DNA of 27,568 nucleotides from an uncultured Deferribacteres bacterium (GTDB lineage Bacteria; Zhuqueibacterota; Zhuqueibacteria; Zhuqueibacterales; Geothermadaptataceae): the NCBI GenBank assembly GCA_964014485.1, contig CAXHAT010000099.1, positions 1-27,568 on the forward strand, given 5' to 3'. The notes under the pieces were generated by a model. The model did no database searches, was not told the DNA's origin, and worked only from the letters and a program-made list of their open reading frames with translations. A program made the translations under genes and the position numbers. Shown piece after piece: positions 152 to 22,693 of this stretch (the first letter of the stretch is position 1; each line of letters opens with the position of its first letter).

Positions 152-1573
152 CTAAAACGCGAAGCCCGCGTTTTGGTCAACTTCACGATCCAATTGTTGC
201 AGCGCTGCGTGAACATTCAGAACGCCGCTTCCTCCGCCGGCTCCTTCTCCCGGTCGCCATGGCCGGGCCGTTTTTTGTAAAATTTCTCCAATTTTCTCCG
301 CCGACGTCGGGTGCGAACGTTTCCTGGAGCGACTAACCAGAAGTGCAGCAGCGGCGGCCACGAACGGCGCCGCGAAACTGGTTCCCGTCGCCAATTGATA
401 ACCCTTCAAATTCGCGCTCACCACCTTTTCGCCGGGCGCGCTCAATTTTACATGCCCCCCCCTCGTGCTGAATCCCGACAACTTGCCGTCCGCATTGACC
501 GATCCCACCGCAATCACGCCGTCCAGCGCCGCCGGCAGAAAACGCTCTTCCTTGCCCGAATTTCCGCTTGCCGCCACCATAACGCAGCCGCGCGCCAAAC
601 CGTAGCGCACCACATCGGCGTGCGGTCGCGGATCGTCGGAGTCAAGGGCGCGCTCCGGCGTGCCAAAACTCATGTTGATCACGGTCGCGCCAAGATCAAT
701 CGCCGTTTTGACGCCGAAATCAATATCGGAGATTCTGCCGACGCCGACCGGCTCCGCCTTACCGGAAACGCGCGCCGCGCCGAGAACGCGGATCGGCAGC
801 AGGCCGCATTCCCCCGCCAATCCCGGCGGCAAACCGCTGCCGAGGGCGCCAACAATTGCTGCGCAGGCCGTACCATGTCCGACTTCATCTTCGGGATCTG
901 CGTCAATGCCGCTCAAGTCGCCAAGCAATTGTACGCCGTTGGCCAAATCTCGATGACCAAGCTGCACAGCGTCTAATCCTGGACGCAGGCGCTGACGCAA
1001 GTCCGGGTGTTCCGCCGCCACGCCGGTGTCCACAATTGCAGTGATGACGGCCGGATCTCCGGGTTCATAAGCCATGGCTTCAGGCGCGCCAATCATTTCT
1101 CGCGATTGCCAGGCCGCTTCAAAGGAAGCCGTATCAGCGTTTGCCGAAGAAAACGGCGTGGCGCACAAATAAAGCGGTGACGCTTCTTCAACACAGTCGA
1201 GTTGGCGCAGCGCGTCGACCAGATCGGCGATTGAGCAGTCGTCCGCCGTCTCCACTCGAAAAGTGCGGGCGAGACCGGTCGCATGTTCCAGATCATCAAA
1301 GCCTTGATGATGAGCGCCTGTCTTACCTAATGAATTCGCCGCTGTATGCACACGCGCCACTCTGGCGGCGCCGCCAAGCTTTCTGAGAATACGGTCGACC
1401 GGTCCGCCGTCCACTCTTTCTACCGGACGAGCCGCCCCTCGTCGGACGTCCAGGGCCGTTGGAATCGCTTCGGGGGCTTCGCCGAGGGCAAGTTTCATGA
1501 CCAAACGCCCAGGCGCGCTGTATAATTCGCTACTCTGCGCCCACGGCATAATCAGTTGTTGCGTTGCGTGCAT
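152..1573 (-). CDS. S8 family (subtilisin-like) serine peptidase with N-terminal pro-region, no signal peptide
   Basis: Complete catalytic set: IVDTG (Asp), GHGTACA (His), ASGN (oxyanion Asn), GTSFAAP (Ser). ATG at 1573 (MHATQQ) is preferred because the longer TTG-1735 extension runs through an inverted repeat. Confidence 0.93.
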   Translation of the reverse strand: MHATQQLIMPWAQSSELYSAPGRLVMKLALGEAPEAIPTALDVRRGAARPVERVDGGPVDRILRKLGGAARVARVHTAANSLGKTGAHHQGFDDLEHATGLARTFRVETADDCSIADLVDALRQLDCVEEASPLYLCATPFSSANADTASFEAAWQSREMIGAPEAMAYEPGDPAVITAIVDTGVAAEHPDLRQRLRPGLDAVQLGHRDLANGVQLLGDLSGIDADPEDEVGHGTACAAIVGALGSGLPPGLAGECGLLPIRVLGAARVSGKAEPVGVGRISDIDFGVKTAIDLGATVINMSFGTPERALDSDDPRPHADVVRYGLARGCVMVAASGNSGKEERFLPAALDGVIAVGSVNADGKLSGFSTRGGHVKLSAPGEKVVSANLKGYQLATGTSFAAPFVAAAAALLVSRSRKRSHPTSAEKIGEILQKTARPWRPGEGAGGGSGVLNVHAALQQLDREVDQNAGFAF

Positions 1574-1633
1574 GGTTGTTCGCTTTATAATTAAATTTAG
1601 ATCAACCCGGCCTGTACTTTTATACCAAGAAAT

Positions 1634-1752
1634 GGAGTGCAAGGCTTGCCTTGCCATTCTGTCGAAGGCTTTCTTCGATCTTCTCAATTCTAATCGATAT
1701 TTTCCGCGCTTTCCTGTTGTCCGGGTGAGAAGCAAAGCAAGCTTCGTACTCC
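1634..1752. repeat. Intergenic imperfect inverted repeat, GGAG-type REP/REPIN-like
   Basis: Arm 1634-1654 GGAGTGCAAGGCTTGCCTTGC versus reverse complement of 1732-1752 GGAGTACGAAGCTTGCTTTGC: 17/21 identical. Confidence 0.7.
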
Positions 1753-1758: not shown

Positions 1759-2655
1759 TTATTCCAAAGCGCCCAGGCTAAAGGCGTCCGGTGAGATTTC
1801 ACCGTTCTCATTAAGTTCGTTAGAAACATCGAATTCAGTTTCAACTGTTTTGCCCGGCTCCACTTCTAAGGCCAAAGCCCCGCTCAACTGGTGCGCTTGC
1901 GGCGCAACAACAACTTCATGCTCGGTCGCACGGACAACAGGAACGAGCTGGCCGCGAATCCGCACTTGCGGCTTCATTTTTGTCATCAGGTTATTGCCGC
2001 GAATTTTCAAAAGAGGCGGCGCCTTGCTCAACCCGGCTTTACCGATTGCCGCACTTCCTTTTAAAGGCGGTGAGGTTACAGCCGGATTGAAGGCGACTTT
2101 CGCATTTCGATTAATCGACGGCGTTGTCGTCACCTTGGTCACCATCGGACGGGTAGCGCGTTGAAGCGCCGCGCGAAGGCGCTGCACCGGCAGTTGGGTG
2201 AATTTCTGGATCGTCTCTTCATTGCTCGATCTCTGCAATTCCTTGAGCTGCGAAACCGAATGAACGCCAGCCCATTCCAGCCTCCGCTGCTCGTCTTCGC
2301 TGATATCGTCGCCCAACACTTCCCTCAGCGACGGCTCGTCCGACGCTAAAGTCGTTTGCAAAGTATTTTCTTCGATCATGGGCCGGGTAATGGTTGTGAA
2401 CGACAAATGAATCGTGCTCGCACCCGATTCGTTGGCGCCGGCCGGGTGAATCCGTACCGCGCTGCCGGTCATATCGATGTGCGCCTTCAAATCGATGTTA
2501 AGATCTTTCACCGCAAACGTCATCGGCATGCCGGCGCGCGCCTTCAAGGCCAGCGCGGCCTGGGCGCGATCCAATTGGCTCGTGAGCGCTTGAATAAATT
2601 GTTCAATGGGAACGCCGCCGCCGTCATGATTCACGTTTCTTTCCTTTCTTGCCAT
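1759..2655 (-). CDS. Hypothetical protein: Trypco2-like N-terminal domain, helical middle, IPT/TIG-like C-terminal domain
   Basis: 298-aa ORF; alternative GTG start at 2634 overlaps the upstream stop (GTGA). N-terminus is helix then strands (PIEQFIQALTSQLDRAQ...FAVKDLNIDLKA...STIHLSF). Middle has RRLEWAGVHSVSQL. C-terminus LKIRGNNL...VRIRGQLVPVVRATEHEVVV resembles IPT/TIG. Domain names are pattern-based. Confidence 0.75.
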   Translation of the reverse strand: MARKERNVNHDGGGVPIEQFIQALTSQLDRAQAALALKARAGMPMTFAVKDLNIDLKAHIDMTGSAVRIHPAGANESGASTIHLSFTTITRPMIEENTLQTTLASDEPSLREVLGDDISEDEQRRLEWAGVHSVSQLKELQRSSNEETIQKFTQLPVQRLRAALQRATRPMVTKVTTTPSINRNAKVAFNPAVTSPPLKGSAAIGKAGLSKAPPLLKIRGNNLMTKMKPQVRIRGQLVPVVRATEHEVVVAPQAHQLSGALALEVEPGKTVETEFDVSNELNENGEISPDAFSLGALE

Positions 2656-2876
2656 TGCACCACAAGGCGTCCCGGCGGCGCTTCAAATCCGGTTTTCCAA
2701 CGCCAAAGCGGCAGGTCCGCGAAAACATCAAGCGCGTCCGCATGATTTTCAAAACGAACTTCAATCGGCACGTCAATGTGGAGTCCGGTGACACGGACGC
2801 CCTGTTCTGCTCCATTCTCCGAGACCATCGCTCCGGCAAGATCGACCAATGTGTCTGACAGCAATCGACGGTTCAT
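2631..2876 (-). CDS. Small hypothetical protein (helix plus beta strands, Trypco-like pattern)
   Basis: 81-aa ATG ORF co-oriented with the operon and overlapping the next gene. LSDTLVDLAGAM helix, VRVTGLHIDVPIEV strand, RLVVQW terminal strand. Confidence 0.75.
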   Translation of the reverse strand: MNRRLLSDTLVDLAGAMVSENGAEQGVRVTGLHIDVPIEVRFENHADALDVFADLPLWRWKTGFEAPPGRLVVQWQERKET

Positions 2877-2995: not shown

Positions 2996-4270
2996 CTATT
3001 CTTTTTCATTTGCACCTTCTCGCGGTGCGGCGTCGTCAGAGACTGGCTGCACCGACGTCTCGGGTTCAGGGGCCGTGGCGGCGGGCGGTTCCGGCGGCTG
3101 AGACGCGGGCTCCTGAATAGTTTCACTTTGTCTTCGACGATCTGTCGCCGGGCGGGCGTTACGTTGCAGCATCGTCATGAGCGCTTCATCGGCGAAGCGT
3201 TCCAGCGGCAAGGTTTCGCTTTCAAAATTGATTTTGACCTGACCGAATAACTCAGCTTGCAGTGTGGTTTCCGCCTGGGCGTTGGCGCCAACGGTTGAAA
3301 TCATGGTTGCATGCCGCATTGCTGAAGCGCCGCCTCGCCGTCCCCATGAAGGCTGGCCGGGGTCTTGAGAAACGGCATAGTCCACGTTGGCAAGATCACG
3401 CGCCGCAGCTCGAAAACGCACGCGCGCGGAAATCGAGCCGTCCTTGACGTTGATGCGATTCATGCCGAGCAGTACCATCGTCGCTAGCATTTGCAAGCGG
3501 TTTTCGCCGATTCGTCGCCTCGCATACGGCAACAGTTGATTTTCCAAAAGCTCTTCGGTCAGTTCTTCGCCCTCGAGACCAAAATCAGCAAGCCATTCCG
3601 GCGCGGCGGCAAAACCGTTTTCGTCATCCTGCATTTTAGAATAAAGGCGGGGCTGCGCGCCGTCAAGATCAAGCCCGACGTCAGCGGGGTACTGTTCCGC
3701 GAGCCAATCCCTTGCCTGGTTCGCGGTCACATTGTCGCGAGTAAAATCATCAACGTTTTTCGCGACTGCGCTGACGAGATCGGCGAAAGCCTCCATCTGC
3801 CGAATCGCTGAATCGACGATAGCGTCGAACGTGCCGTGAATGAGCCCGGCGACGAATGCAGGAAAATCAATCTCATCGCTCAAAGCTCCTGCGCGTGCGG
3901 CAAGCGTTTCCGTCGCCGCCGGTTTTGCCTTACGCTGCCCTGCATCACCGACCTGTGGCTGCGTTTGGGCGTTTTCGGCGCCAAAGCTTCGCCGCGTTCG
4001 CGCGCGCCGATGCATAAAATCGCCGGGCGTTTCCAAGGTAAAGGCGTAAGGATCGGCCGCCTTCGACGCTTGCGCAGACGCTTCCGGTGAAAGTGCGCCG
4101 CGAATTTTACCCAGATCGCCGAGCAAAGATGCACGGGCTTCCGGGGCCAAGCGCTGGAACGCCGGAGATTGTCGGAGTTTTTCTTCCGCCCGCGCCGCCA
4201 AGCCGCGCGCCGCGAGCACTTCCTGCGTTTCGTTTTTCACGTTTATTTCATTTCCGGTTTTCGTCATCAC
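2996..4270 (-). CDS. Hypothetical protein with DUF2589-like helix/strand pattern
   Basis: 424-aa ORF whose start overlaps the upstream stop (GTGATG). Amphipathic helix IDFPAFVAGLIHGTFDAIVDSAIRQMEAFADLV, later long strands RINVKDGSISARVRF and AELFGQVKINFES, low-complexity termini. Confidence 0.8.
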   Translation of the reverse strand: MMTKTGNEINVKNETQEVLAARGLAARAEEKLRQSPAFQRLAPEARASLLGDLGKIRGALSPEASAQASKAADPYAFTLETPGDFMHRRARTRRSFGAENAQTQPQVGDAGQRKAKPAATETLAARAGALSDEIDFPAFVAGLIHGTFDAIVDSAIRQMEAFADLVSAVAKNVDDFTRDNVTANQARDWLAEQYPADVGLDLDGAQPRLYSKMQDDENGFAAAPEWLADFGLEGEELTEELLENQLLPYARRRIGENRLQMLATMVLLGMNRINVKDGSISARVRFRAAARDLANVDYAVSQDPGQPSWGRRGGASAMRHATMISTVGANAQAETTLQAELFGQVKINFESETLPLERFADEALMTMLQRNARPATDRRRQSETIQEPASQPPEPPAATAPEPETSVQPVSDDAAPREGANEKE

Positions 4271-5469
4271 AAAGCGTAAAAAACATCTTTCAAATTCGTC
4301 GAATCACGCAGACGAAGCAGCCGCGTTCGCGCAGCGCCTTTTGCCCCCGCGAGCAGGCGGCAAACATGGTCCGTCCCGATAGGCAGCGCCGCCGCGCCCT
4401 GCTCTCGCAAAGCGGCGACCAACGACGCGTGGGTTTGCGGGGCGAAAACACCTGATTGCGTCACACCCGCCGCCGCCTGAAAATCGGTTAATTTTTCATA
4501 TCCAAGCATTTGAAGCGCGTGCTGCCGCTGCATTGCCGTACGCAACGGGCCGACCGCTTGCACAACTCGGCGTAAGCCGCCGCCCAGACCGCGCGCAATC
4601 ACGCAATCGAAGGCCATCGCCAGTCCGCGATCGCTCGCAACGCCAAGCTTGCCGACAACGTCGAGCATGGGGCGAAACAATTTTTCAATCGCCGCTTCAT
4701 TTTGGGCGTTTTGGAAAGCTTCAATCTCTCCCGCCCGGCGGAATCTGCCCAGCCATTCACTGCTCCATAACGTTTTGCCGTTGACCGGCTGCAAACGTTC
4801 TTCCGGCGTCGCCGCATTCGTCACTTCGAGCAGCGTTTGCGCGTGTTCGCCGAAAATCTCTGAAAACGCAGCGGCGTCGCGTTGCTGCATGAGACGCAGC
4901 ACTTCGCCGAGGCGTCCGGATTCCTGCGTAAAAAGCAGTAATCCGAATCCCAGACCGAATTGCCTTTTTTGGTGCGCCGGATGTTTTGCCGTGGTGAATT
5001 CACGATTTGCTGAAACCGCCGAATAGAGCGCGTCGCCTGAATGCGCCGTCGCGACTTCTCGGACGATGCGGTATATTTCCGGGTTGGTCAGCGCCATTCT
5101 TTCTGCCTGCGGCTCAACCGGCTGCTCAGGATCGGCTTCTTCGCCAAGAATGTCGGTATAATCCGCTTCTTTTAAATTGACCGACGCTCCGGCGGGCGTT
5201 TCTTCTTCCGAGAAGGCCTGCGTTTGTTGTTCAGGCGTTTCACCTTTCTCGCCGACAACCTGGACGGACTGAATCGTATCTTCCGGCGGCTCAGAAAGCA
5301 CGAACTCGGGCTGAGATGCAGCTTGTCCGTTTCCCCCGGAAGCCGCCGCGGCAACCGAAGGGTCGTCGACGACCTGGACGTTTTGCACTTCGTCTTCCGG
5401 GGGCGGCGAAAGGACAAATTTGCGTTTGGATTCAGCGCTGTGGTCGTTTGTATTTTGGTTGGCTTGCAT
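4267..5469 (-). CDS. Lysozyme/chitosanase-like fold protein with C-terminal peptidoglycan-binding-like motif and acidic repeated N-terminus
   Basis: RBS AGGAGA precedes the ATG. GLGFGLLLFTQESGRL resembles the lysozyme-superfamily GxxQ hairpin; LTDFQAAAGVTQSGVFAPQT resembles PG_binding_1 (FQxxxGLxxDGxxGxxT). Confidence 0.7.
   Translation of the reverse strand: MQANQNTNDHSAESKRKFVLSPPPEDEVQNVQVVDDPSVAAAASGGNGQAASQPEFVLSEPPEDTIQSVQVVGEKGETPEQQTQAFSEEETPAGASVNLKEADYTDILGEEADPEQPVEPQAERMALTNPEIYRIVREVATAHSGDALYSAVSANREFTTAKHPAHQKRQFGLGFGLLLFTQESGRLGEVLRLMQQRDAAAFSEIFGEHAQTLLEVTNAATPEERLQPVNGKTLWSSEWLGRFRRAGEIEAFQNAQNEAAIEKLFRPMLDVVGKLGVASDRGLAMAFDCVIARGLGGGLRRVVQAVGPLRTAMQRQHALQMLGYEKLTDFQAAAGVTQSGVFAPQTHASLVAALREQGAAALPIGTDHVCRLLAGAKGAARTRLLRLRDSTNLKDVFYAL
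5254..5418 (-). repeat. Intragenic 17-aa duplication FVLSxPPEDxxQxVQVV
   Basis: FVLSPPPEDEVQNVQVV (5368-5418) and FVLSEPPEDTIQSVQVV (5254-5304). Confidence 0.85.
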
Positions 5470-5482: not shown

Positions 5483-8400
5483 TCACTTTTGCGTCCAGCG
5501 CCGGCGAATATCATAGCTTCCGTTGCCGTATAAAGTCAGGTCGGTTATGGCGATCCAGTCATCATGCGGCCACGTCCAGCCAAAGCGGTAGTGGAAACGC
5601 AGTTTGACAGCGGCAAACCGTGCGCTAGTCGCCGGAACGGTAGTATAAGTGTTGGCGTCATTCATGATGTTTTCCTTCACGGTCAAGCTGCCGCCCATGG
5701 CGTCGCTGTTATTGACGACCGAAACCTGAATGTTGCCAAGAGAGCGACCGTTATATTGAAACACGACTTCGCAGTCCACATAAATCTTGTCGAACCCCAG
5801 GGCTGTGCTTGCCACCGGCCCGGCTATCTTGAGCGTTTTGTTTTGATAGCCTGCCGTACCGGCGTTCGAAGGGTAGTCGCCAATGTGCTTGAGTCCTTGC
5901 AATTGATCGAGTTCCCAGTGCACGTCGCCTTCGTTGTCGAGAATGCGAGACATGGTGGCGCCAACAATCGCCGACGCAATTTCAACCGCCTGCATCGATT
6001 TGGCGACGCCTTGTCCGGCCGCCAAATCCGGCGTGTTCGGACGGCAGGTTTCATTCGCGTTTGCGGCTTGAGACAGACTCGCGCCGTATTGAATCGTGCG
6101 TCCGTCCGTACCGCCGGCGTGAAGGATTTGGGCGGTTATCCCGCCGGAGGGAATTCGCATGGTCAAGTCTTCATATTCTTGCATGAAGTCGGCGTATCTC
6201 TTTTCCGCTCGCCATTGCCCGGTCCCAACGGGCCAAGGATCATTGTAAATGACGGTTGTGCCGCCAGGCGTGCCGTCGCCGTAAAGCCCAGTCACCGTTA
6301 CCGCATGACCCGAGTTTGGTCGGGCAACGCCGATCCAGACCGGACCGTTGTTTTCCAACATTTGACGAAAGCCTTCAACCGTATAGCTTGCCAGAGGCTC
6401 TTTAACAAGTCCCCAGGCGTCCGCCAACGTTTCAATACTGCTTGGAGAAAGACCTCGTCTATAAGCCGCCCAGAGTCCGGAGCCGCGAGCGATTTCTTCA
6501 GGAATGAGACAAACGCGCTCCCGCCAGCCGACCACCATTGCCGCGGCCGCCGCCCAGCAAGACATGCCCGTCAACTGCGGCGCAAGATCGACACTGTTCC
6601 AGTTCATGTAGAAACTTTGGTCGCTCGACATCGCTTCCGACGAACACGTTCCGGCGCTGCACGATCTGCTTTGAGCGGCCATGCTATAGCTCCCGGACTC
6701 GCTGCAATTGAGTTTCGTCATGCTGCGTCCGCCAGCACTTGCTGCGTGCATCAATTGCACGTCCATATGCGTCGCGGTTGCAGGGTCTCCGCCGGGGCGC
6801 GGATCAAACTTCGACGCAAGCTGACGAAATGTTCTTGAATACTGGCTGCCGGAACTCGGCGTCGGATTTTGTTGAGGGCCGCCTGGGCTGTCCGCGTTCT
6901 CGCCCCAAGGGTCGTTAAAATAGACGTAAGTTCCGTCTTCCGTGCCGTCGCCGCAAACGCCGGTAATGACAGCGGCGTGCGGGTGATTTCCATCTTTCGG
7001 CGCCACCCAGAGCGGGCCGTATCTCTCCAGCATTTGGCACAATTCCTTCAGCGTATACGCCGCGTGATTTTCCAGCGTAAGATTACCGGCTTGCGCTACG
7101 GAAGTGCGATCAAATCCATTACCGAGCTGCGCCGGATTCACCGACATGCTGTCGCGCCAGCCAACAACCATGGCGGCGGCCTCCGACCAACTGTTCGCGC
7201 GCCCGGCGTCTTGAACCAAATGCACATTGCCCCAAGCCTTGTTAACCGGAATCGCGCCGCTTCCGGGAGCCGTAAGGTTATTTTGGGAAAACGCTTGCGC
7301 GCTTGTGCCGCTTGAGCTACCTACAGACCAGATCCAATTGATTTTATCTTCCGTCAGTCGACAACCTTGATTGAGCGTATCGCTGAACTGATTCGTGCCT
7401 TCAACCTTGGCTCTCGATACGTGAACGCCGATGGCGGAAACGGCCAGCACGGATTGCTGGCGCTCTTCATCGTTGTAGGCATAAACATAATAAACCGGCG
7501 AGCCGCTGTTGCCGCCAAGCGTTTGCAGGTTATATTGAAAACGCTCCATATTGTCGGACAGGCCTTGAATCGTATCGGCGTCGAGGCGTTGTTTCCTCCA
7601 ATCGAGAATAATGTTTTTATATCTGCGGCTTCGGTATGGGTAACCGCAAACAATAATTGGCTCCAGAATCGACATATTAAGCGCTTCGAGTTCGAAATAC
7701 CAGCCGTTCGGCGGCGGTGATTCAACGCTAATAACCCCCAAGTCGAAATCGTTCGAATCGCCAGTATGAGTGAGATAGCTTGGATGGGGAGTAAGAGCTG
7801 AAGAGTAAACTTCAAAGGAGCTGAATGGTTTTACGTCTCCATTCATTCCCGGGGTAATAATGATTTTTTCCGCTTTCGCTCCTGTTTGCGGGTGAAAAAA
7901 ATTATGTGCGCAGGTTAGAATCCTATCCTGAGAAATGTAGAAGCCGGTGCCAAAAAATCTGCCGGACTCTCCTGGAAAATATATCTGGAATTGGCAAATC
8001 GCCGAATGTGGAGAAAACGTTGTATCATCGACTCCCGCATGCCAGCGACTGTATTTTTTGCCCCATTCATACCATGATTCGAGTGCATCCAAAAAACCGG
8101 TTGGTTGATAAAGCGGGTCAACGATCTCCAAGGCGTGCGCGGTCGTACTATTCACGTTAAATGATTGAGCGGCGGCGACCGAAACACCTTGAATCAAGTT
8201 ATCGAGAAATCTGTCCCATTCCCCTTCCTGGGAAAAATCATAGCCGACCGAAATTGAGTCGGCTTGGCTTTTTGGGCCCCAATCGCCGTCAACCGTCAGG
8301 TTTTTGCCAAACACTTCGTTGAGAACGCGCTGGGCGAATTTGGCCTGTGATTCCGCTGCCCTCCAATGCGTGGGGCGGCCCAAATCGCAGTGCCAATGAT

Positions 8401-9511
8401 CGTGATGCGCGGCGTTGTAGTCGTAGTTGAGAACCGTGCCGAAAACTTTTCTTAGCGTAGCTTCAAGCCTCAAATATCGAATCCAGTCGGTTGGAGCGTC
8501 ATTCGCGAGGAATTTATCGGAGGCCGACCACCAGAGACCGTCAACGTCAATCGCCAGTCCGGCGCCATGTTGTCCGCCTTTGTCAACGTAGAGTCCGCCT
8601 GTTAAAATGTAGGCCGGGGCGTTTTCTACCTGGGTAATGTAGGGCGCCCAAGCGTCCAGTGCGGCTTGCAATCGAGGTTCGCCCCTGAAATTTCTGTTTG
8701 AGCGACCAGGCTCAGGCTCAATGACTCCATAGCCGTGCGCTTTTAAACGATCATAAGCCAATCTGTAACTTCCGGCGTGTGTGATATTCGTAAGGCCCAT
8801 CGCCGTGCTTTGTACGCCCTGCTGATCGGAAACGTCGTCGCTTGTCAAGGGCATAGGGCCGAAGCCGTCGTCATAGTCAAATGCTGCGCTGGTCGCGGCG
8901 TCTGGCGTTGCAGGTTGGACGCCGCCGTTTGCGGGGGCCGGCGTAGCGGGAGAAGATATAGGTGCTGCGCCATTGCCGTTGGTCGGTGCGGAAACGGCGC
9001 CGTTTATCGGCTGAGTGCCCGGCGTCGCCATATCTCCGGCCCATTCAAGAACGCCGTTGACGGCAGGACTGTAACCGTTGCCGTTTTCGCCGTATGAATT
9101 GCGTCCGCCTCCCATAATTTGCCTGCGGCGCGAGCTGCGTCCCGTCAAGGCAGATATATTGACCCACGGGCTGTCTTCGTTGGGGAGGCGCAATGTTGCA
9201 ACAGCGTCGCCGCCGGCATCGTTGAAGGTGGCCAGGCCGTAGTAAATTTTGGGCTGTCCGGCAAAACGCTGCAACGCTTGCTGCGGCACGAGATAAACAG
9301 CTTCTCCGCGCTCTATTGGCAAACGTCCTTCGGCGCGGCTGGAGTAAAAGTTGTTTTTCGTGCGCCGATCTTTTCCCTCCGAGCGCAGCAACGCCGGCTC
9401 CGATGCAATGGCTATCTCAAACCAGGGCGCCGCGTCGGTTTTAACGGTAAAACCAAGCACAGGAAACCGGTCACTCACTTCCATTCGATTAGGACGGATC
9501 ATCGTTGCCAT
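5483..9511 (-). CDS. Large multi-peptidase protein: unknown N-domain / M15-like Zn peptidase + PG-binding / trypsin-like Ser protease / two papain-like (AvrRpt2, C70-type) domains / unknown beta-rich C-domain
   Basis: AAGGAGG RBS 5 nt before ATG 9511; alternative ATG 9538 overlaps the upstream stop. Motifs: QHGAGLAID...HHDHWH (H-x6-D...HxH), VDGDWGPKS, TCAHN / DFDLGVI / GNSGSPV triad, NSWSEAAAM...HAAVITG...NDPW, and QLTGMSCWAAAAAM...GHAVTVTG...NDPW. Confidence 0.9.
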   Translation of the reverse strand: MATMIRPNRMEVSDRFPVLGFTVKTDAAPWFEIAIASEPALLRSEGKDRRTKNNFYSSRAEGRLPIERGEAVYLVPQQALQRFAGQPKIYYGLATFNDAGGDAVATLRLPNEDSPWVNISALTGRSSRRRQIMGGGRNSYGENGNGYSPAVNGVLEWAGDMATPGTQPINGAVSAPTNGNGAAPISSPATPAPANGGVQPATPDAATSAAFDYDDGFGPMPLTSDDVSDQQGVQSTAMGLTNITHAGSYRLAYDRLKAHGYGVIEPEPGRSNRNFRGEPRLQAALDAWAPYITQVENAPAYILTGGLYVDKGGQHGAGLAIDVDGLWWSASDKFLANDAPTDWIRYLRLEATLRKVFGTVLNYDYNAAHHDHWHCDLGRPTHWRAAESQAKFAQRVLNEVFGKNLTVDGDWGPKSQADSISVGYDFSQEGEWDRFLDNLIQGVSVAAAQSFNVNSTTAHALEIVDPLYQPTGFLDALESWYEWGKKYSRWHAGVDDTTFSPHSAICQFQIYFPGESGRFFGTGFYISQDRILTCAHNFFHPQTGAKAEKIIITPGMNGDVKPFSSFEVYSSALTPHPSYLTHTGDSNDFDLGVISVESPPPNGWYFELEALNMSILEPIIVCGYPYRSRRYKNIILDWRKQRLDADTIQGLSDNMERFQYNLQTLGGNSGSPVYYVYAYNDEERQQSVLAVSAIGVHVSRAKVEGTNQFSDTLNQGCRLTEDKINWIWSVGSSSGTSAQAFSQNNLTAPGSGAIPVNKAWGNVHLVQDAGRANSWSEAAAMVVGWRDSMSVNPAQLGNGFDRTSVAQAGNLTLENHAAYTLKELCQMLERYGPLWVAPKDGNHPHAAVITGVCGDGTEDGTYVYFNDPWGENADSPGGPQQNPTPSSGSQYSRTFRQLASKFDPRPGGDPATATHMDVQLMHAASAGGRSMTKLNCSESGSYSMAAQSRSCSAGTCSSEAMSSDQSFYMNWNSVDLAPQLTGMSCWAAAAAMVVGWRERVCLIPEEIARGSGLWAAYRRGLSPSSIETLADAWGLVKEPLASYTVEGFRQMLENNGPVWIGVARPNSGHAVTVTGLYGDGTPGGTTVIYNDPWPVGTGQWRAEKRYADFMQEYEDLTMRIPSGGITAQILHAGGTDGRTIQYGASLSQAANANETCRPNTPDLAAGQGVAKSMQAVEIASAIVGATMSRILDNEGDVHWELDQLQGLKHIGDYPSNAGTAGYQNKTLKIAGPVASTALGFDKIYVDCEVVFQYNGRSLGNIQVSVVNNSDAMGGSLTVKENIMNDANTYTTVPATSARFAAVKLRFHYRFGWTWPHDDWIAITDLTLYGNGSYDIRRRWTQK

Positions 9512-9537
9512 CCGAGCCTCCTTAAAAAAAGATCGCA

Positions 9538-9813
9538 TTATTCAAAAACTGATTTTCGCTTCAAGCGATAGCACGGGTTTTGCTTATCGCCGAACTTCTC
9601 CAGGACGCCTTTTTCAGTCAGGGAAGTTAAAACTTTTTCAAGCCGTTGAACTTCAACACGGATGCATTGTCGCAAAATCCACCATTCGGCTATGCCTTCA
9701 AGGGCGTCTGCGGCGGAGGGACATTCTTGAAGATAAGCCTGAATTGCATCAGCCAATTGCTTTTCGTCTTTCGTTGAACGGTGATGAACGTTCTTGCCGC
9801 AGGTCTTGCCCAA
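9538..9813 (-). CDS. Small hypothetical protein, winged-helix-like (YLxxxPxAADxLEGIxxWW)
   Basis: TTG start 6 nt after a perfect AGGAGG (9820-9825). Helices followed by LTEKGVLEK...CYRL wing-like end. Confidence 0.85.
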   Translation of the reverse strand: MGKTCGKNVHHRSTKDEKQLADAIQAYLQECPSAADALEGIAEWWILRQCIRVEVQRLEKVLTSLTEKGVLEKFGDKQNPCYRLKRKSVFE

Positions 9814-9844: not shown

Positions 9845-9859
9845 ACAAGCTTCGTACCA
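9845..9859 (-). promoter_or_regulatory. Putative sigma-54 (-24/-12) promoter of the peptidase operon
   Basis: Minus strand TGGTACG-AAGC-TTGT versus consensus TGGCACG-N4-TTGC, with correct spacing. It lies about 20 nt upstream of the RBS, and the adjacent gene is a GAFTGA activator. Confidence 0.75.
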
Positions 9860-10220: not shown

Positions 10221-11270
10221 TTAGCTGCGATATTGCTGAGGATTAAGACCATGTTTTTTCAGAAGCCTGCCGAGATCACGACGCTCCTTCCCTGCAGCTT
10301 TCGCCGCCACCGTTACGTTTCCAGCATGCTTTTGCATGAGTCGCGTCAAATAATCCATTTCGAACGCTTCGATAACTTTCCGTTTCATTGTTTTGAATGA
10401 ACCAATCTTTGAATCACTTATGACTGAGTCGCGGTTTGTTGGTCGCATCAGCGGCGAAATTTCCAGATTGGATGCATGGATTTTGGAAGACTTGCTGAGA
10501 TGAACCCCTCTGATAACAGCGTTCTCGAGCTCACGGACGTTTCCCGGCCATTCGTATGTCATTAACGCTTGAGCGGCCTCCACAGCAAAGCTTTTCTCAG
10601 TCGTTTCGGGGTGTGAATGTTTTTGGATAAAGTGGTTTGCCAAAAGAAGAATATCTTCTTTCCTCTCTCGAAGCGGCGGCAAGAAAACTGAAAAAACGCA
10701 AAGCCGATAGAACAAATCTTGGCGGAACTTACCGCTTGCCACCAAATCTTCGATAGATTGGTTGGTTGCTGCAATAATTCGCACGTCAACAGTACTTTCT
10801 CTGACTCCTCCAATTGTACGAAAACGCTGGTCCTGCAAAACACGGAGCAGCGCGACTTGCGCTTTCGATGAGAGCGAATCGATTTCATCCAGAAAAAGAG
10901 TCCCTTTATCTGCTTGCACGATCAACCCTGCTCGCCTTGAGTGAGCTCCAGTAAAGGCGCCTTTTTCGTGCCCAAAAAGCTCACTCTCAAAAAGTGAATC
11001 CGGCAGCGCTCCACAATTGACCGGCACAAATGGAAACGACGCCCGTCTGCTCATGTAATGAATGGCGCGGGAAGCCAGTTCTTTGCCAGTTCCGGTTTCA
11101 CCGACGACGAGCACAGCAGCATCGCTTGCGGCTATGGATGGGAACTGTTGGGTCGCTTTTCTAAAGGCGGGCGAATCCCCCACAATTTTTGCTTGTGAAA
11201 GACCGTATCGAAGGCGTTCTACGATCTTTTCCAAACCACGCTCTCCCAACTTTTGGTTTTGCAAATCCAA
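10221..11270 (-). CDS. Sigma-54-dependent transcriptional activator (AAA+ plus Fis-type HTH) without N-terminal sensor domain
   Basis: Walker A GETGTGKE, GAFTGA loop, Walker B FLDEID, FRQDLFYRL, WPGNVREL, C-terminal GNVTVAAKAAG HTH. Start codon uncertain (TTG). Confidence 0.95.
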   Translation of the reverse strand: MDLQNQKLGERGLEKIVERLRYGLSQAKIVGDSPAFRKATQQFPSIAASDAAVLVVGETGTGKELASRAIHYMSRRASFPFVPVNCGALPDSLFESELFGHEKGAFTGAHSRRAGLIVQADKGTLFLDEIDSLSSKAQVALLRVLQDQRFRTIGGVRESTVDVRIIAATNQSIEDLVASGKFRQDLFYRLCVFSVFLPPLRERKEDILLLANHFIQKHSHPETTEKSFAVEAAQALMTYEWPGNVRELENAVIRGVHLSKSSKIHASNLEISPLMRPTNRDSVISDSKIGSFKTMKRKVIEAFEMDYLTRLMQKHAGNVTVAAKAAGKERRDLGRLLKKHGLNPQQYRS

Positions 11271-11501
11271 CTTTCGACTGCCGGTTCAAGAGACAGGTGA
11301 CGGTCGTCGAGGGCGCCAAGTACATAGCTTTTGAACAGGCAGGTCTTTTTGAAGTCGACAAGGCGACGTTCGCCATTTCCCACTCCTCAATGCGTCTCGT
11401 TTTGTTGGGGACTTTGAGCTTTGCGTAGTCACGCATATTTATATTTTGTAATTTTCATCGTACGCTTTTTAATCCGTTTCAAACCCGCCTGTTTCTTGAC
11501 C

Positions 11502-12248
11502 ATGGATTACGTCACCCTATCTAACCAGGCCCTGATCGAAGAATGCCAAAAGGAACCGCTTTCGGAGTTGGCGTGGAAACACTTTGTCGAGAGGTTTCAC
11601 AAGCATGTTTCCAAGTGTCTATATCGGCACGGCAAAAAGCTGCGCGTGGCGAAAAGCCATTCCGACCTCATGGACAAAGTCCAGGACTCTGCTCAAAACG
11701 TCCTCTTGAAGCTCGTCGCAAACGATCGTAATTTGATTAAAAACTTCAGGAACGAAACGGAGAATGCGATTTGGGCTTACTTGGCTATGATTTCTAAATC
11801 CGAGATGATGAACTACAAGTCCAGCCAGGAGACGCAAAAAAGAAAAGGCAAACATGTATCTTTCGATCAACCGATTGAGACGCCTGCCGGGCACCGCAAT
11901 ATAACTTGGGAAGAATCCATCTCAGAGACGATCTACGATCCGGAACTCAAAGAAAGGTTTGACAACAAAGTCGAAAAGTTGCTGGAAAAACTGAACGCTT
12001 TAAATTTTCATCGACACAAAGCCCGAAACGTCCTTATCTTCAAACTGCATGTTTTAAAAGATCTTACGCCGAAAGAAATTTTTTCGGTTCAAGGGTTCAA
12101 TCGGTCGGCAAATCTCAGTGAAGACACAGATAACTTCGGCGTTTCAGAAGACCATTTGCTTTTGCTCAACAAGGGCGGAAAAATGTCTCTAAAGCGTATT
12201 CAAAACCTCATCAGCGATATTAGAAAACAATTGAAAGATGATTGGTAA
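11502..12248 (+). CDS. ECF-type RNA polymerase sigma-70 factor
   Basis: LIEEC...AWKHFVERF, QDSAQNVLLKL, YLAMIS (region 2) and IFKLHVLKDLTPKEI...IQNLISDIRKQL (region 4); upstream of a ZAS anti-sigma gene. Confidence 0.8.
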   Translation: MDYVTLSNQALIEECQKEPLSELAWKHFVERFHKHVSKCLYRHGKKLRVAKSHSDLMDKVQDSAQNVLLKLVANDRNLIKNFRNETENAIWAYLAMISKSEMMNYKSSQETQKRKGKHVSFDQPIETPAGHRNITWEESISETIYDPELKERFDNKVEKLLEKLNALNFHRHKARNVLIFKLHVLKDLTPKEIFSVQGFNRSANLSEDTDNFGVSEDHLLLLNKGGKMSLKRIQNLISDIRKQLKDDW

Positions 12249-12265
12249 TTTTATGTCGGCGTCTG

Positions 12266-12290
12266 GGAATCATCTCCCGCGCTCTTGTCC
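12266..12290 (+). promoter_or_regulatory. Possible ECF-type promoter GGAAT-N16-GTCC
   Basis: Loose match to the generic ECF GGAAC-N16/17-GTC pattern in the sigma/anti-sigma intergenic region; short motif that could be chance. Confidence 0.2.
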
Positions 12291-12505
12291 CAACGAAAAT
12301 ATAGGACGCTCTTTCGCCCAAAGGTTCTTGTTTTTATTTATATGACATATAGTCGCCAAAACTGACAGGGCAAAGGACTCAAAATAAGAGTTTTCTCTGC
12401 TTGAATTGAGCATCGCAGAATGATGCATAAAAAGTTTTGTTGCATTGTACGTGCTGTGCGCACGGACTTTTAATAACGCGTGATTTTAAGACGGATATTT
12501 TTTTA

Positions 12506-13465
12506 ATGCTGCATCAACCTACGCCAGACTGCTTTGATGAAAATCAAATCATTCGCTATGTCGAAGGCGAACTTTCCGACGACGACAAGGAGCGGATGGA
12601 AAAACATTTTAACGATTGTCCCGCCTGTTTTGAGGAATTGGCGGATTTAACCGAAATTTTGTTCTCTGAAGAAAGCCTCGATGATTTTGAACAATCCTAT
12701 ACGCCGCCGACAAAATCTGAGGTGAGAAAATTTCTTAAACATGCGAGGCGAGAGAGTAACGCCTCATCTCGTTGGTCGTTTTTAAAAAAACTCTATTCGT
12801 TTTGGGAACGTTTTGAAGAAAGCTGGTCGAGAAAAATACCGGCGCCTGTTTTAAGAGTCGCCGTCCTTGTGATTTTTATGGTTCCGTCAGGTTTTTGGGC
12901 TTTTCGCTATTATCAAACCGATTACCAAATTTCTCAAGCGCGGAGTATTTTGACTGAAAACGCCGGAATCTATTACGGCGGCGCCCCGCGACTGACAGGC
13001 GGCTACAAAGCGGATCTGGTCGACAAAACCCAGATTATGAGCAACGATTCCAGCGATGCTTATCTTGGCGAAGTTACTAAAAAACTCGACAAAGCGCTCA
13101 GAAACGGCGCTGATGAAGTTGAGGCCCTGCGACTTCTTGCGCATGCGGCAATGTTGAAAAGCCAGTTGGCAAGAGCCGATTCATTGCTAGGTTCAGTTCT
13201 TAACCAAGGGAACCCAACAGCCGAGATTTACAATGATCTTGGCGCGGTAAAATACAAGCTGGAAAAATATGTAGAAGCCGACTCTTTTTTCTCAAAAGCG
13301 ACAGACCTCGATAGCACGCGCAGCGAATTCTTGTACAATCTTGCCTGGACAAAAAAAAGAACGGGGCGGGCTGAAACGGCGAAGACGCTTTTTACCAAGT
13401 GCCTGGCGTTAGAACTAACGGAAGAATGGCGACGAGCGATAGAAAGCGCATTAGCAGACCTTTAG
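12506..13465 (+). CDS. Anti-sigma factor: zf-HC2 (ZAS) domain, transmembrane helix, C-terminal TPRs
   Basis: YVEGELS...HFNDCPAC (HxxxCxxC); hydrophobic VAVLVIFMVPSGFWAF; TPR motifs IYNDLGAVKY and FLYNLAW. Confidence 0.88.
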   Translation: MLHQPTPDCFDENQIIRYVEGELSDDDKERMEKHFNDCPACFEELADLTEILFSEESLDDFEQSYTPPTKSEVRKFLKHARRESNASSRWSFLKKLYSFWERFEESWSRKIPAPVLRVAVLVIFMVPSGFWAFRYYQTDYQISQARSILTENAGIYYGGAPRLTGGYKADLVDKTQIMSNDSSDAYLGEVTKKLDKALRNGADEVEALRLLAHAAMLKSQLARADSLLGSVLNQGNPTAEIYNDLGAVKYKLEKYVEADSFFSKATDLDSTRSEFLYNLAWTKKRTGRAETAKTLFTKCLALELTEEWRRAIESALADL

Positions 13466-13518
13466 CCTCCCAGTAGTATTCACTTCGTCCGGGCCTCATC
13501 GAACAAAGGGGAACGTTT

Positions 13519-15696
13519 ATGTCTAGTTCTAGTTCGGACCACTTACATTCAGGGCGGAACCGAAACAAAAACATCACGCTGGTTCGCAGATTCCCTCTCG
13601 TCAAAACCTTTCGTACGCACAGCTTAGGGCTGACGCTGGCTTTTGTCAGCGTCGTAACCGCGGCGACATTTCACTATATTTACCATCATTCGATAATTTC
13701 ATGGGCGACCCCGGTTTCATCTATATTCTTCTTCGCGCTGCTCACTTATAATTTTGATTATCTGGTTCGGCAAATCGTATCCGCTTTTATGTCATTAGCC
13801 AAGCTAGCAATCTTTGTCGCGGTTGTGATTATTGCGTTAGTAATTTGGGGGTTGTCTTTGATTCAATCAGTGAATCTGGCCGGCAATCAATCAAGCTTGC
13901 TTATGCTTTGGTCACAGTTTGGTTTTTTGTTCATTGCCGCTTATTTGTCCGGCATGTTGTTCGCTTACCTTTACAATGCTCTGGTTTACTTCTTCGTCAC
14001 GACTTTCCAACACTCGAAGCTTAGAATTGCATTCGCGTATGATAAAACCAAAAGCCTGAACATCATCAAGTCCCCGGCGGAACGGGAAGAAATTGCGTTC
14101 TTGAAAGCCGTTCGGCCATTCAAATATTATGTTGAAACAATCCGCCATGCTGCGAACATAAATTCGCCGCGCGACGTCCTTCTGGAAATTATTCATGAGG
14201 CTTGGCACAGGGTTCATAAACGAGACCAGGAGCATTTTCTCATTTTTGTAGGGCTCGGAATAAATGACTCGTGGGAGGCTCTCCGAAGCCGCATTACTTC
14301 AGAGCTTGCAAATAACAAAAGCGATATGCTCCGAACACTTGAAAGAGATTTTGAGCCGATTGTAGAGCGCGCCCTCCATTTAAAAGAACACAAGCTTTAT
14401 AATTATGAAATCAAGAATGAGCCTCCTCAGCCGTTCACCATTGCCTTTGTCGCCAATCCAACACTCTTAAGAAAAAACGACGATATGGCACAAACGGTAT
14501 CCCCTGAAACCGATCCGATCATGAAAGATCGCAAGTTGTTTTTTCGGACGGTTGACAGAGCGCTCCGAGCCATGGAAGGAAATGACGTGTTCGGACGACC
14601 GGAGATATGGAGTCGTGTTCGTATTTTAACCTGGTTTCCGGCTGAAACTTCCAACGCCGCCGGCACAACGCCGACGATTAATCTGGTACAAGATTTGGGG
14701 CCGCAAATTTTGGAAGATGAACGCATTTCGGATAACATGCTGACTCCTTCCACTGACATGACTTCTCATTTTATCAACGAAATGTTTATTCCCGGTCTAG
14801 ATGAGCATAATGACCTTAAACAAGCTGTTAAAGTCGGATTTAGCGGATTATCAACAGATCCCAATGCGCCCGATTTGCCGCATATCGACGTCATCACTGC
14901 GGTCAGCGCTTCGGAAACAAACACTCGCGCCTCAGCGCGATACGCAAACTACCTCGAGTCGCAAAACGGCGCATCGACGAATTCGCATACGGAAAAAGAA
15001 TATGATGATCCGCCTTGCGCTAAAGATTGCGAGTGTCGTCCGAGCAAAGAGAACGAGTTTTATTTTAATCCAGACCCGCATGGAACGAAAATGCGCAAGA
15101 AGCCAAACAATAAATTCGAACCGGAATTTAAACCCTATTTGATTTTGAAAGACGACGGCGCCGGAGGGGTAAACGAAGAATTGTACGACGGCACAAAACC
15201 GGAACACAAGAGCTTTGAACACGAGGATTTTACAGAACACCCCGGGCGAATCGCCGTTAACGCGCTGACAGCAACCGGCCACACGTTTGTCCACGAACTG
15301 GCGCACGCCATCTCGTCGGCGCAAAACGGTATTATTGCCGACGAATACATCAATCGCGCTTATGTTATTGATCACGATGCGCAAGCCGCTGCAAACAATA
15401 CCTCCGGCAGCCAGAATAATCATCCGCTTTTTTATATCAATCGTATCGAGCAGAAGCGGCCTAACGACCACAGAGTCGCAGCGGTGCACCAAGTATTTGG
15501 AAACTATAATTGCGTTGATTACAGAAGCGACTTGTACCCGCCGTCCGCTGAAGAAAATTGGAATATTTACTTTCCTGAGCGCGAGGATCCAAATGTTGCC
15601 TGCACCATGGATCGGGCTTACGGCGCCCATCGTTTCGACAAGTTATTGAGTCGCTTTATTTATGACCGCATGATCGCAAAAGTTAATCGACGTTAA
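13519..15696 (+). CDS. Membrane-anchored zinc metallopeptidase, M64-like
   Basis: About four hydrophobic segments in the first ~165 aa. TFVHELAHAISSAQNGIIADEY (HExxH at 15292-15306 followed by ADEY, as in M64) and a downstream CTM. Confidence 0.75.
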   Translation: MSSSSSDHLHSGRNRNKNITLVRRFPLVKTFRTHSLGLTLAFVSVVTAATFHYIYHHSIISWATPVSSIFFFALLTYNFDYLVRQIVSAFMSLAKLAIFVAVVIIALVIWGLSLIQSVNLAGNQSSLLMLWSQFGFLFIAAYLSGMLFAYLYNALVYFFVTTFQHSKLRIAFAYDKTKSLNIIKSPAEREEIAFLKAVRPFKYYVETIRHAANINSPRDVLLEIIHEAWHRVHKRDQEHFLIFVGLGINDSWEALRSRITSELANNKSDMLRTLERDFEPIVERALHLKEHKLYNYEIKNEPPQPFTIAFVANPTLLRKNDDMAQTVSPETDPIMKDRKLFFRTVDRALRAMEGNDVFGRPEIWSRVRILTWFPAETSNAAGTTPTINLVQDLGPQILEDERISDNMLTPSTDMTSHFINEMFIPGLDEHNDLKQAVKVGFSGLSTDPNAPDLPHIDVITAVSASETNTRASARYANYLESQNGASTNSHTEKEYDDPPCAKDCECRPSKENEFYFNPDPHGTKMRKKPNNKFEPEFKPYLILKDDGAGGVNEELYDGTKPEHKSFEHEDFTEHPGRIAVNALTATGHTFVHELAHAISSAQNGIIADEYINRAYVIDHDAQAAANNTSGSQNNHPLFYINRIEQKRPNDHRVAAVHQVFGNYNCVDYRSDLYPPSAEENWNIYFPEREDPNVACTMDRAYGAHRFDKLLSRFIYDRMIAKVNRR

Positions 15697-15733
15697 GACC
15701 TAAACGCTATACGACGTTTCAAAGGAGAAAGAA

Positions 15734-16327: not shown

Positions 16328-16333
16328 TTTTCA

Positions 16334-16526
16334 CTACCTGACACTTTTTATAGGCTTCTGAAGCTGGCGAAAAAAGCCGGAATTGTCATGCTGGAAGCAT
16401 CTTTTTTGATCTGACCCTTGAACTTTTGGGCATGATCTGTACTGGGCGATAACAAAGATTCCTCCTGAATGACAAAACGGGGCCTTTCGACGACTCGAAA
16501 ATGCAGTTTACTAAAAAGTGTCAGGT
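16334..16526. mobile_element. MITE-like non-coding element with nested inverted repeats
   Basis: Perfect 15-bp IR ACCTGACACTTTTTA (16336-16350) / TAAAAAGTGTCAGGT (16512-16526). Inner IR 16383-16404 / 16454-16475 (18/22). The left end recurs exactly at 27518-27534. Confidence 0.75.
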
Positions 16527-16582
16527 CGAGAGCCCTAATCTAAAGATTTAGAAAACACGAGTGCCCCGGACGGAAAGAACCC

Positions 16583-19573: not shown

Positions 19574-19588
19574 AAACGAGGTGGTCAA

Positions 19589-21054: not shown

Positions 21055-21061
21055 TTAACTT

Positions 21062-22690: not shown

Positions 22691-22693
22691 AGA

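Follow-up and report, generated by a model that had tools for sequence, protein, structure and literature searches.

A 27,568-nucleotide stretch of DNA from an uncultured Deferribacteres bacterium (GenBank assembly GCA_964014485.1, contig CAXHAT010000099.1, positions 1 to 27,568; hereafter, the window) encodes a long protein composed of several hydrolase modules and, in the same operon, a separate subtilase of the S8 family. The question that this locus raises is whether the [AS]x[AS][FLM] words at the domain junctions of the long protein are sites at which the subtilase cuts it into separate enzymes, as proposed in an initial annotation. Across homologues, a refined form of the motif is strongly enriched between modules and keeps a fixed register at module starts, and polyprotein processing is the reading, drawn from sequence, that best fits every test that we ran.

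The likely start of the long protein is Met10 of its open reading frame (ORF; position 9511), because AGGAGG precedes this codon and the database protein has 1342 aa; residue numbers below are those of the 1351-aa ORF (5483-9538, minus strand). All nine words listed in the initial annotation occur at the claimed residues, and so do the three words in partner proteins, TQAF↓S in a 400-aa protein (residue 83), AFTL↓E in a 424-aa protein (residue 76), and ATPF↓S in the subtilase (residue 192; arrows mark predicted cuts). However, two of these partner words, AFTL and ATPF, fall outside the annotated pattern. The excess of the pattern in the long protein is real, with 13 matches against 5.45 expected (p = 0.002), but the annotation had counted only 8; the five omitted matches (SSAL 579, AAAM 787, AAAM 998, STAL 1244, and SDAM 1278) are all inside folded modules, and linker specificity does not hold within this single protein (6 versus 1.9 in linkers, 7 versus 3.2 in domains). 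Scored with a profile from which this protein was left out, the nine annotated sites are all within the top 15 of 1346 windows, together with one window that overlaps an annotated site and five in domains.

Homologues were collected using residues 10-235 as the query, which returned 136 proteins of 743-2365 aa (120 of them listed); including ORFs of the loci, the set amounted to 159 sequences and was reduced to 85 at <70% identity. Using profiles built here, we mapped 15 module types on these 85 proteins, which represent 71 architectures; about eleven of 14 automatically found "domains" were linker words, and two were kept as domains. The modules that follow the constant N-terminal domain comprise Amidase_2, Peptidase_M15, a Rv2525c-like glycoside hydrolase, trypsin-fold proteases, Peptidase_C70, Peptidase_C92, DUF3238, and several unnamed ones (module nicknames, like D1-D4 below, are labels coined in this analysis). 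The amidase modules match phage endolysin families (PHROGs). By a hydropathy proxy, none of the 85 proteins has a hydrophobic N-terminus or signal peptide. The catalytic Cys is present in 70 of 75 C70 modules, and the catalytic Ser in 45 of 51 trypsin modules; the first C70 module of the window protein, with Ser783 at the Cys position, is therefore probably inactive. The extensin-like-C module is, judging from its His motifs, probably a Zn peptidase of the M15 type.

The motif was quantified in 358 inter-domain gaps (5 skipped for length) and 448 domains of the 85 homologues. The annotated pattern is enriched 2.66-fold in gaps and 1.35-fold in domains, whereas a refined pattern, [AST][QRHKM][ASG][LMFY], composed after inspecting homologues, is enriched 7.38-fold in gaps (347 versus 47; reached by 0 of 300 shuffles) and 1.14-fold in domains, and is carried by 251 of the 358 gaps versus 44 in shuffles. 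The top 4-mers found de novo in gaps include AQGL, QSLG, AQSL, ARAM, AQAL, and ARAL; random-seed expectation maximization returned AQAL/AQAQALG-type words as the second motif class, behind an acidic word. A profile trained on 84 homologues, without the window protein and with the word YDDGFG masked, converged on one solution from three seeds: P4 is A (56%), S (15%), G (12%), or T (8%); P3, which is informative, is mostly Q (32%) or R (28%); P2 is A (46%), S (22%), G (20%), or P (6%), with A/S/G summing to 88%; P1 is L (61%), M (13%), F (11%), or Q (6%); and P1' is A, G, S, D, or E (A/G/S, 64%). In held-out clades, a site was found in 324 of 352 gaps versus about 82 in shuffles (two clades, with 6 gaps, were below testable size). 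With the profile applied in-sample, the site is present in at least half of the cases for 70 of 74 junction types.

These results bear on the trivial explanation that such words arise as a by-product in linkers rich in Ala/Ser/Gly, or that they are the trace of a DNA recombination site used in module shuffling. The failure of the annotated pattern to separate linkers from domains in the single protein agrees with such an origin, and so do linkers defined by BLAST coverage, in which this pattern is enriched 1.62-fold versus 1.66-fold in domains (refined pattern, 3.46 versus 2.50). The latter definition failed, however, because most linkers were counted as domain. Linkers defined by hydropathy also separated poorly (1.94 versus 1.59 for the annotated pattern, 4.23 versus 1.65 for the refined one). 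Against a by-product stand the composition-preserving shuffles, the held-out clades, and control linkers from the same genome, namely, low-complexity segments of 984 other long ORFs, in which enrichment is 0.80-fold versus 6.28-fold here. The codons at the sites spread like the background, with all synonymous codons and both Ser codon sets in use, which speaks against a recombination site; because codon use at the sites resembles that in the rest of the genes, selection acts on the protein. The by-product explanation is thus largely refuted, and we regard it as very improbable; enrichment in linkers over a composition-matched background, on which the initial annotation had staked its claim, is found across the homologues.

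The sites are often paired, with two or more in 168 of the 358 gaps (in-sample profile). Close to the upstream module, most sites read AQ(A/S/G)L and lie a median of 16 residues past the module end; on the downstream side, most read AR(A/G)(L/M) and lie a median of 9 residues ahead of the module start. The spacer between paired sites has a median length of 19 aa (79 gaps) and contains 14% Lys+Arg versus 7-9% in the flanks. Ahead of modules, the register is kept at +2 for trypsin modules (30/45), at +4/+5 for C70 (38/70) and amidase (26/47) modules, and at 0 for modules that we denoted VVG (6/12). A site after the module is common at internal positions and rare at the last one: 37/44 versus 0/7 for trypsin, 7/7 versus 6/62 for the C-terminal module, and 4/5 versus 0/5 for the Tail module; in last modules, the stop codon falls at or shortly before the position of the usual site.

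Such words could also be docking strands, read uncut by a chaperone, the 647- and 339-aa proteins of the operon, the prenyltransferase, or a D1-D4 assembly, for threading or loading of the intact protein. The alternation of small and variable residues agrees with docking, as does the retention and multiplication of sites in free-standing cassettes (4 and 6 in loci L003 and L006), and the genes for candidate readers are as conserved as the S8 gene. The fixed register at module starts and the stop codon that stands where a last site would be fit cleavage better, and so does the make-up of P1 and P2, which is typical of subtilase substrates. Docking has, in our judgment, a slim chance of being the explanation.

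If the words are cut, the cutting enzyme has to be named. Subtilases favor a small P2, a bulky P1, and an exposed P3. The S8 enzyme of the window has the catalytic residues Asp236, His287, and Ser453 and the oxyanion Asn392, with D, H, N, and S invariant in 27 of 27 aligned copies, and no signal peptide by the hydropathy proxy. An intact S8 gene accompanies the polyprotein gene in 34 of 34 loci that are long enough (loci not de-replicated). The nearest solved relatives of this enzyme are Ak.1, thermitase, and then cyanobactin proteases (E = 6e-35).

The motif could instead be cut by another protease, be it a chromosomal one, the in-cis trypsin-fold module (3C-like, after Gln), or a papain-fold module (one residue later). 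Gln is the commonest residue at P3, the S8 pro-domain junction differs from the motif, and 27 of 51 scored trypsin modules retain Thr190/His213-type residues, which favor Glu/Gln. However, trypsin modules are absent from 40 and C70 modules from 27 of the 85 polyproteins, with no motif loss or change, and the rate and make-up of the motif are independent of in-cis trypsin, C70, or C92 modules. Gaps carry the motif in 124/183 cases with a trypsin module versus 127/175 without, and in 188/261 with C70 versus 63/97 without; with neither, the count is 18/27. The Gln share (102/265 versus 99/249, p = 0.79) and the frequency of Gly after P1 (67/378 versus 24/136, p = 1.0) also argue against this explanation. 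Because the motif is unaffected where trypsin and C70 modules are missing, the in-cis candidates are removed, and the occurrence of one motif over several phyla speaks against a host protease. We consider an enzyme other than S8 rather improbable.

S8 could also read the motif and transfer the acyl-enzyme to an amine, resulting in ligation to a carrier or in PatG-like head-to-tail cyclization. Like cyanobactin cores (PMC4663559), each module is bracketed by sites on its N-side and its C-side; cyanobactin proteases belong to the solved relatives nearest to S8, and the operon encodes a prenyltransferase fold. The enzyme is nevertheless closer to Ak.1 and thermitase and scores 90.7 bits against a PatA/PatG cut-off of 421; there is one S8 gene, not two, and the last modules lack a C-side site. 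Transfer is accordingly quite improbable.

Proteins other than the polyprotein carry the motif as well. In D1 (the 424-aa protein) and its paralogues D2-D4, which are unrelated to the polyprotein and outside the training set, the linker between the N-terminal helix pair and the core has a site at ≥7 bits in 67 of 97 cases, versus 17.6 in shuffles. The model of D1 consists of a helix pair, a disordered linker with the motif, a helix of 35 residues, and a hairpin whose two strands have about 28 residues each (predicted template modeling score, pTM, 0.46). A fold search gave no Foldseek match at E <0.001 and, for VIA, a best Z-score of 6.5 with the N-terminal helices only; the long hairpin has only non-significant matches to barrel stems, and the sole family lead is DUF2589 (0.78). 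The loop of the hairpin in D1-D4 carries an aromatic residue (Trp in 14, Tyr in 4, and Phe in 2 of 22), a candidate point of membrane contact or prenylation. In the free 400-aa cassettes, one to six sites occur in the N-terminal extension in 13 of 13 cases (raw counts, not set against shuffles).

We consider it likely that S8 matures in the cytoplasm and cuts at the motif after and before modules, freeing enzymes with defined ends; it would probably also remove the N-terminal helix pair from D1-D4. Under this scheme, sigma54 would turn the operon on, and cytoplasmic S8 would cut after P1 (Leu/Met/Phe), dropping the short Lys/Arg-richer spacers. Cleavage of the D1-D4 linkers would let the long hairpins assemble into a pore or conduit, and the prenyltransferase-fold enzyme may, to judge from gene content, lipidate an aromatic residue on one of the products. 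D1-D4 and the 298-aa protein would then open the membrane, and the cocktail would attack the cell's own wall and neighboring cells. Tentatively, and with somewhat more doubt than belief, we suggest that the whole is a tightly controlled programmed lysis system that releases wall- and protein-degrading enzymes, with contact delivery to prey as the main alternative. Lysis is favored because wall hydrolases made in the cytoplasm without signal peptides would need a membrane breach to reach any wall, and because no immunity genes are seen. More doubtful is the bolder proposal of a maturation machine of the ribosomal-peptide type at whole-protein scale, in which one cytoplasmic subtilase would excise shuffled cassettes and unlock four pore subunits while a DMATS-like enzyme prenylates protein substrates as anchors. 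This would amount to a new kind of sigma54-controlled, signal-peptide-free delivery of a custom hydrolase cocktail, of which bacterial protein prenylation would be a part.

Several observations weigh against processing by S8. The motif is low in information, as is apparent from the five in-domain windows among the top 15 of the window protein, and equally scoring words occur in folded cores of other operon proteins (the 647-aa protein, for example, has ARAF↓G at 10.2 bits); since in-domain words score as high as sites, accessibility must do part of the selection. Conversely, 51 of the 358 gaps lack a 7-bit site. The absence of sites after last modules partly reflects lack of room, the tails being <10 aa in 63 of 85 proteins. 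Free cassettes keep sites although there is nothing upstream to remove, which fits docking as well. The constancy of S8 cannot single out this enzyme, other core genes being equally constant. The pro-domain junction of S8, which the initial annotation had cited in support, is weak evidence: in relatives, it is mostly xxPF (P2 Pro in 21/27, P1 Phe in 18/27), Pro makes up only about 6% at P2 of the motif, and, because xxPF scores 2.5 bits on the polyprotein profile, the junction provides no independent support. Three S8 copies have a pro-junction ending in QSM, QTM, or LGM. Finally, the pore step rests on the D1 model of pTM 0.46, which has no significant fold match.

The genes form a 12-13-gene cluster, patchily distributed over bacteria of several phyla, that includes one long protein of swappable enzyme modules. 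The conserved order is a sigma54 activator, a 91-aa winged helix-turn-helix (wHTH) protein, the polyprotein, an optional 400-aa cassette, D1, an 81-aa protein, a 298-aa protein, S8, a 647-aa protein, a 346-aa protein with a prenyltransferase fold, D2, D3, a 339-aa protein, and D4. In the genome under study, the operon is split over two contigs: the first eight genes are in the window (contig C99), and the last six are on C266 (locus L011). The two contigs have no overlap; adjacency is inferred from the gene order in relatives and equal GC content (0.56 versus 0.50 in the genome). The C-terminus of D4 (L011, about 8500-8733) consists of tandem repeats rich in Gly/Ser/Thr; lying at the end of the contig, they probably caused the assembly break. 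Coordinates are collected in the table.

Table. Features of the operon. Coordinates refer to the window unless another contig or locus is named; residue numbers are those of the respective ORFs.
Feature	Coordinates	Strand	Basis or remark
S8 subtilase, 527-aa ORF with pro-domain; probable start Met55 at 1573	152..1735	-	PF00082 1e-33
ATPF↓S, predicted S8 pro-domain junction	1151..1162	-	homologue alignment; 2.5 bits on polyprotein profile
298-aa protein; N-terminus weakly similar to Trypco2/Pepco, C-terminus weakly to IPT/TIG	1759..2655	-	Pfam, sub-threshold
81-aa conserved protein, without family	2631..2876	-	conserved in loci
D1, 424-aa beta-hairpin protein, one of four paralogues	2996..4270	-	structure model
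Site AFTL↓E in D1 linker	4034..4045	-	4.9 bits, rank 5 of 419
400-aa free-standing cassette	4267..5469	-	same module fused to polyprotein end in 6/85 homologues
Site TQAF↓S in 400-aa protein	5212..5223	-	9.8 bits, rank 1 of 395
Cassette polyprotein	5483..9511	-	1342 aa from Met10; 1351-aa ORF opens at 9538
C-terminal module, no known family	5495..5953	-	85 homologues contain 69 copies; last module in 62
Site AKSM↓Q (1179-1182)	5993..6004	-	5.9 bits
Site GASL↓S (1152-1155)	6074..6085	-	6.4 bits
Peptidase_C70 module 2, Cys994/His1078 present	6116..6613	-	Pfam
Site SEAM↓S (967-970)	6629..6640	-	6.2 bits
Site SYSM↓A (950-953)	6680..6691	-	6.1 bits
Papain-fold Peptidase_C70 module 1	6743..7237	-	Pfam; Ser783 at catalytic Cys position
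Site AQAF↓S (747-750), best-scoring	7289..7300	-	10.7 bits, rank 1 of 1346
Trypsin-fold (V8-like) protease module, His545/Asp599/Ser678	7331..8122	-	PF13365 2e-9
Site AHAL↓E (467-470), before trypsin-fold module	8129..8140	-	10.2 bits; same register in 30/45 homologous sites
Site AQSF↓N (457-460), after-module site	8159..8170	-	8.2 bits
Extensin-like-C module	8192..8770	-	PF06904 4e-6
Site STAM↓G (244-247), before extensin-like module	8798..8809	-	7.8 bits
Site SAAF↓D (217-220), directly before YDDGFG word	8879..8890	-	5.5 bits
Constant N-terminal domain, no known family	9032..9499	-	first in 85/85 homologues (domain served as search query)
91-aa protein, probably winged helix	9538..9813	-	conserved; weak wHTH Pfam matches, one homologue, E 0.003-0.09
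Sigma54 -24/-12 promoter, near-consensus	9845..9859	-	read from sequence
Sigma54-dependent activator (AAA+ + Fis HTH)	10221..11270	-	Pfam Sigma54_activat 2e-65; upstream of operon in many loci
346-aa protein, ABBA prenyltransferase fold	C266 2339-3379		model pLDDT 89.9
647-aa protein, helical, without family	L011 418-2361		very conserved, 47-70% identity
D2	L011 3406-4716		paralogue of D1
D3	L011 4742-5944		paralogue of D1
339-aa protein, helical, without family	L011 6089-7108		paralogue of 647-aa protein, likewise very conserved
D4	L011 7116-8733		paralogue of D1

Ten GTDB loci share this gene order; their titles are Chloroflexia, Acidobacteriaceae, Longimicrobium, Holophagales, Chthonomonadales, Gemmatimonadetes, Pyrinomonadaceae, Phenylobacterium, Ruegeria, and Erythrobacter. 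Of 551 metagenome matches that were confirmed, the best 80 show it as well. In five genomes read further, the operon ends with D4, with no conserved genes beyond it. Within the class to which the window belongs, the operon is present in 3 of 61 genomes, its own included; cultured carriers are Ruegeria sp. R13_0, Paraburkholderia xenovorans, and Sphingomonas alpina. Of 21 loci, 12 have a sigma54 consensus ahead of the gene for the 91-aa protein, versus 0.4 in shuffles; the window itself fails the strict pattern and has a near match only. No variable small genes within the operon, a sign of toxin-immunity pairs, were detected among the loci compared. A search of the operon proteins against PHROGs found no phage structural genes, and a tailocin or contractile-injection reading was dropped on this ground.

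The downstream half of the operon alters the view taken in the initial annotation, of virus-like cutting into effectors: processing is supported, but because this half adds a prenyltransferase fold and three more beta-hairpin proteins, the system is cassette-like rather than simply virus-like. The model of the 346-aa protein matches CymD (Z-score = 27.9, root mean square deviation 3.5, 324 residues aligned), with 19 prenyltransferases on top and the next fold at Z = 7.0. This protein is encoded in 31 of 31 loci that are long enough, and its profile gave 248 matches in a whole-library search. Glu60 (28/29), Arg72 (28/29), Lys146 (26/29), and Tyr148 (27/29) are conserved in its homologues; they are putative equivalents of the DMATS acceptor Glu and the basic and Tyr residues of the diphosphate site. 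The prenyltransferase is fixed in an operon that has no obvious small-molecule pathway, and a protein substrate is possible. For the core of the 647-aa protein, HEPN-like Atlas leads (0.80-0.85) fall below the bar of 0.9. Profile searches of the PDB with the prenyltransferase, 647-aa, and C-terminal-module alignments gave no match. Three of three scanned homologues of the 298-aa protein match Trypco2 (PF19631) weakly (E = 0.005-0.036; 14.8-17.5 bits versus a cut-off of 24.2), and Pfam gave no such match in the window's own copy. By hhalign, the D1, 298-aa, and 81-aa proteins show no homology to one another.

Compared with published systems, the operon appears new in that it fails the defining features of MARTX toxins, cyanobactins, and S8-PTS, although the cutting principle has precedents in the first two. 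In MARTX, the segments between variable effectors are unstructured and are cut at small-Leu-small sites; the cysteine protease that does so is located in cis, is activated by InsP6, and tolerates no residue but Leu, and terminal repeats are present (PMC2900308). The row of modules with such sites between effectors is alike, here by sequence only, but the candidate protease has a gene of its own (S8), Leu/Met/Phe occupy P1 and Gln/Arg P3, the sites are often paired, and the cargo consists of wall hydrolases and proteases. Pfam detected no MARTX-type cysteine protease domain in the window protein and 19 homologues, and no RTX/MARTX repeats appear in the domain maps of the 85 homologues or in Pfam scans. 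Cyanobactin precursors contain variable cores flanked by N-side and C-side recognition sequences of 4-5 residues (PMC4663559). A subtilisin-like protease and an ABBA-fold prenyltransferase are shared with the PatA/PatG/PatE/PatF system, and the variable modules here may be flanked by recognition sequences in a like manner, two or more sites being common within a gap and both module sides sharing one motif. In contrast, the modules that would correspond to the short peptide cores are folded enzymes of 130-270 aa; the single S8 lacks the PatA/PatG C-terminal domain and stays below the TIGR03895 cut-off by the score given above; the prenyltransferase model is nearer to DMATS-type CymD than to PagF/PatF (Z = 17); there is no heterocyclase; and no operon ORF scanned has a Pfam match to a PatE-like precursor.

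In S8-PTS, a neighboring S8 gene is predicted to release variable toxin domains (PMC9424270); as described there, the proteins of these systems have signal peptides, a BetaH domain, and a single toxin domain each, immunity genes are present, and basic cleavage sites were proposed. None of these features is seen here. Trypco/Pepco proteins are barrels activated by proteolysis (PMC12642450). Like these (Trypco1/2) and the EACC1 defense effectors (PMC12642450, PMC7159879), the present system would license a latent beta-barrel or pore by site-specific proteolysis, and the 298-aa protein has its sub-threshold Trypco2 match; it differs in that no STAND or other sensor is fused to the protease, control is transcriptional through sigma54, and a multi-enzyme polyprotein and prenyltransferase are added. 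The giant proteins of Omnitrophota are multi-domain and wall-degrading and were proposed to be cut into several products by S8 or C39 domains (10.1101/2023.11.21.568195). As described there, they have tens of thousands of residues, membrane location, in-cis proteases, and no identified cleavage points; the proteins here are of 0.8-1.9 thousand residues, soluble, and with a defined motif. The 300,000 characters covered of PMC3482391 mention neither AvrRpt2 nor a polyprotein. The literature search, with most subscription papers and all supplements outside it, found no description of the operon; comparative-genomics supplements of Aravind and Zhang could list the families.

Protease-punctuated polyproteins are routine in viruses and are established in bacteria mainly for self-cutting toxins. 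The cluster appears to be a protease-triggered lysis or weapon system without earlier description, and it offers a defined motif that can be tested, a candidate protease that is dedicated and encoded in trans, 71 architectures in 85 proteins, and cultured carriers. If the scheme is right, the cluster would be a new modular system of lysis or conflict; it would also provide an ABBA prenyltransferase with a possible protein substrate, assign functions to about eight familyless proteins and modules, and supply a natural protease-plus-linker kit for obtaining several proteins from one gene.

Some features of the polyproteins and cassettes deserve mention in their own right. The word YDDGFGP directly follows the first site (window, about 8855-8878; residues 221-228) and is present in 74 gaps; the likeness of YDDG to the cyanobactin word AYDG was considered and put down to coincidence. 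Other acidic words after sites include GIEGPIPDD and KEADY; all these words may be modification or metal-binding tags. The C-terminal module forms tandem arrays of four or five copies (L061 842-3517, L075 7845-9917, and L029 796-3054), and many copies open with a hydrophobic segment that follows the site. In VVG modules, which belong to no known family (P0062 454-688 and 12 more), the predicted cut leaves an Ile/Val-Ile/Val-Gly N-terminus, which resembles the activation N-terminus of trypsin-family zymogens. The free cassettes have N-terminal tandem acidic repeats (L003 8488-9984, L006 8281-9978), of which the window copy (4267-5469) has two similar ones; in L003 and L006, the motif stands ahead of each acidic repeat, an arrangement like that of peptide precursors.

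Elsewhere in the genome, contig C314 (6026-6232) encodes another copy of the 91-aa protein, which is distant at 30% identity. Upstream of the operon in the window, a divergent cluster at 11421-19933 (plus strand) encodes an extracytoplasmic function (ECF)-like sigma factor, a zf-HC2/TPR anti-sigma factor, a TPR-CHAT protease of 996 aa, and two further proteins of 725 aa (familyless) and 197 aa; it is not seen beside the operon in relatives. The region 19930-25845 (minus strand) encodes a glycosyltransferase, an ABC transporter pair, a deacetylase, and a 538-aa protein and, judged by eye, is bshA/bshB/bshC (bacillithiol)-like.

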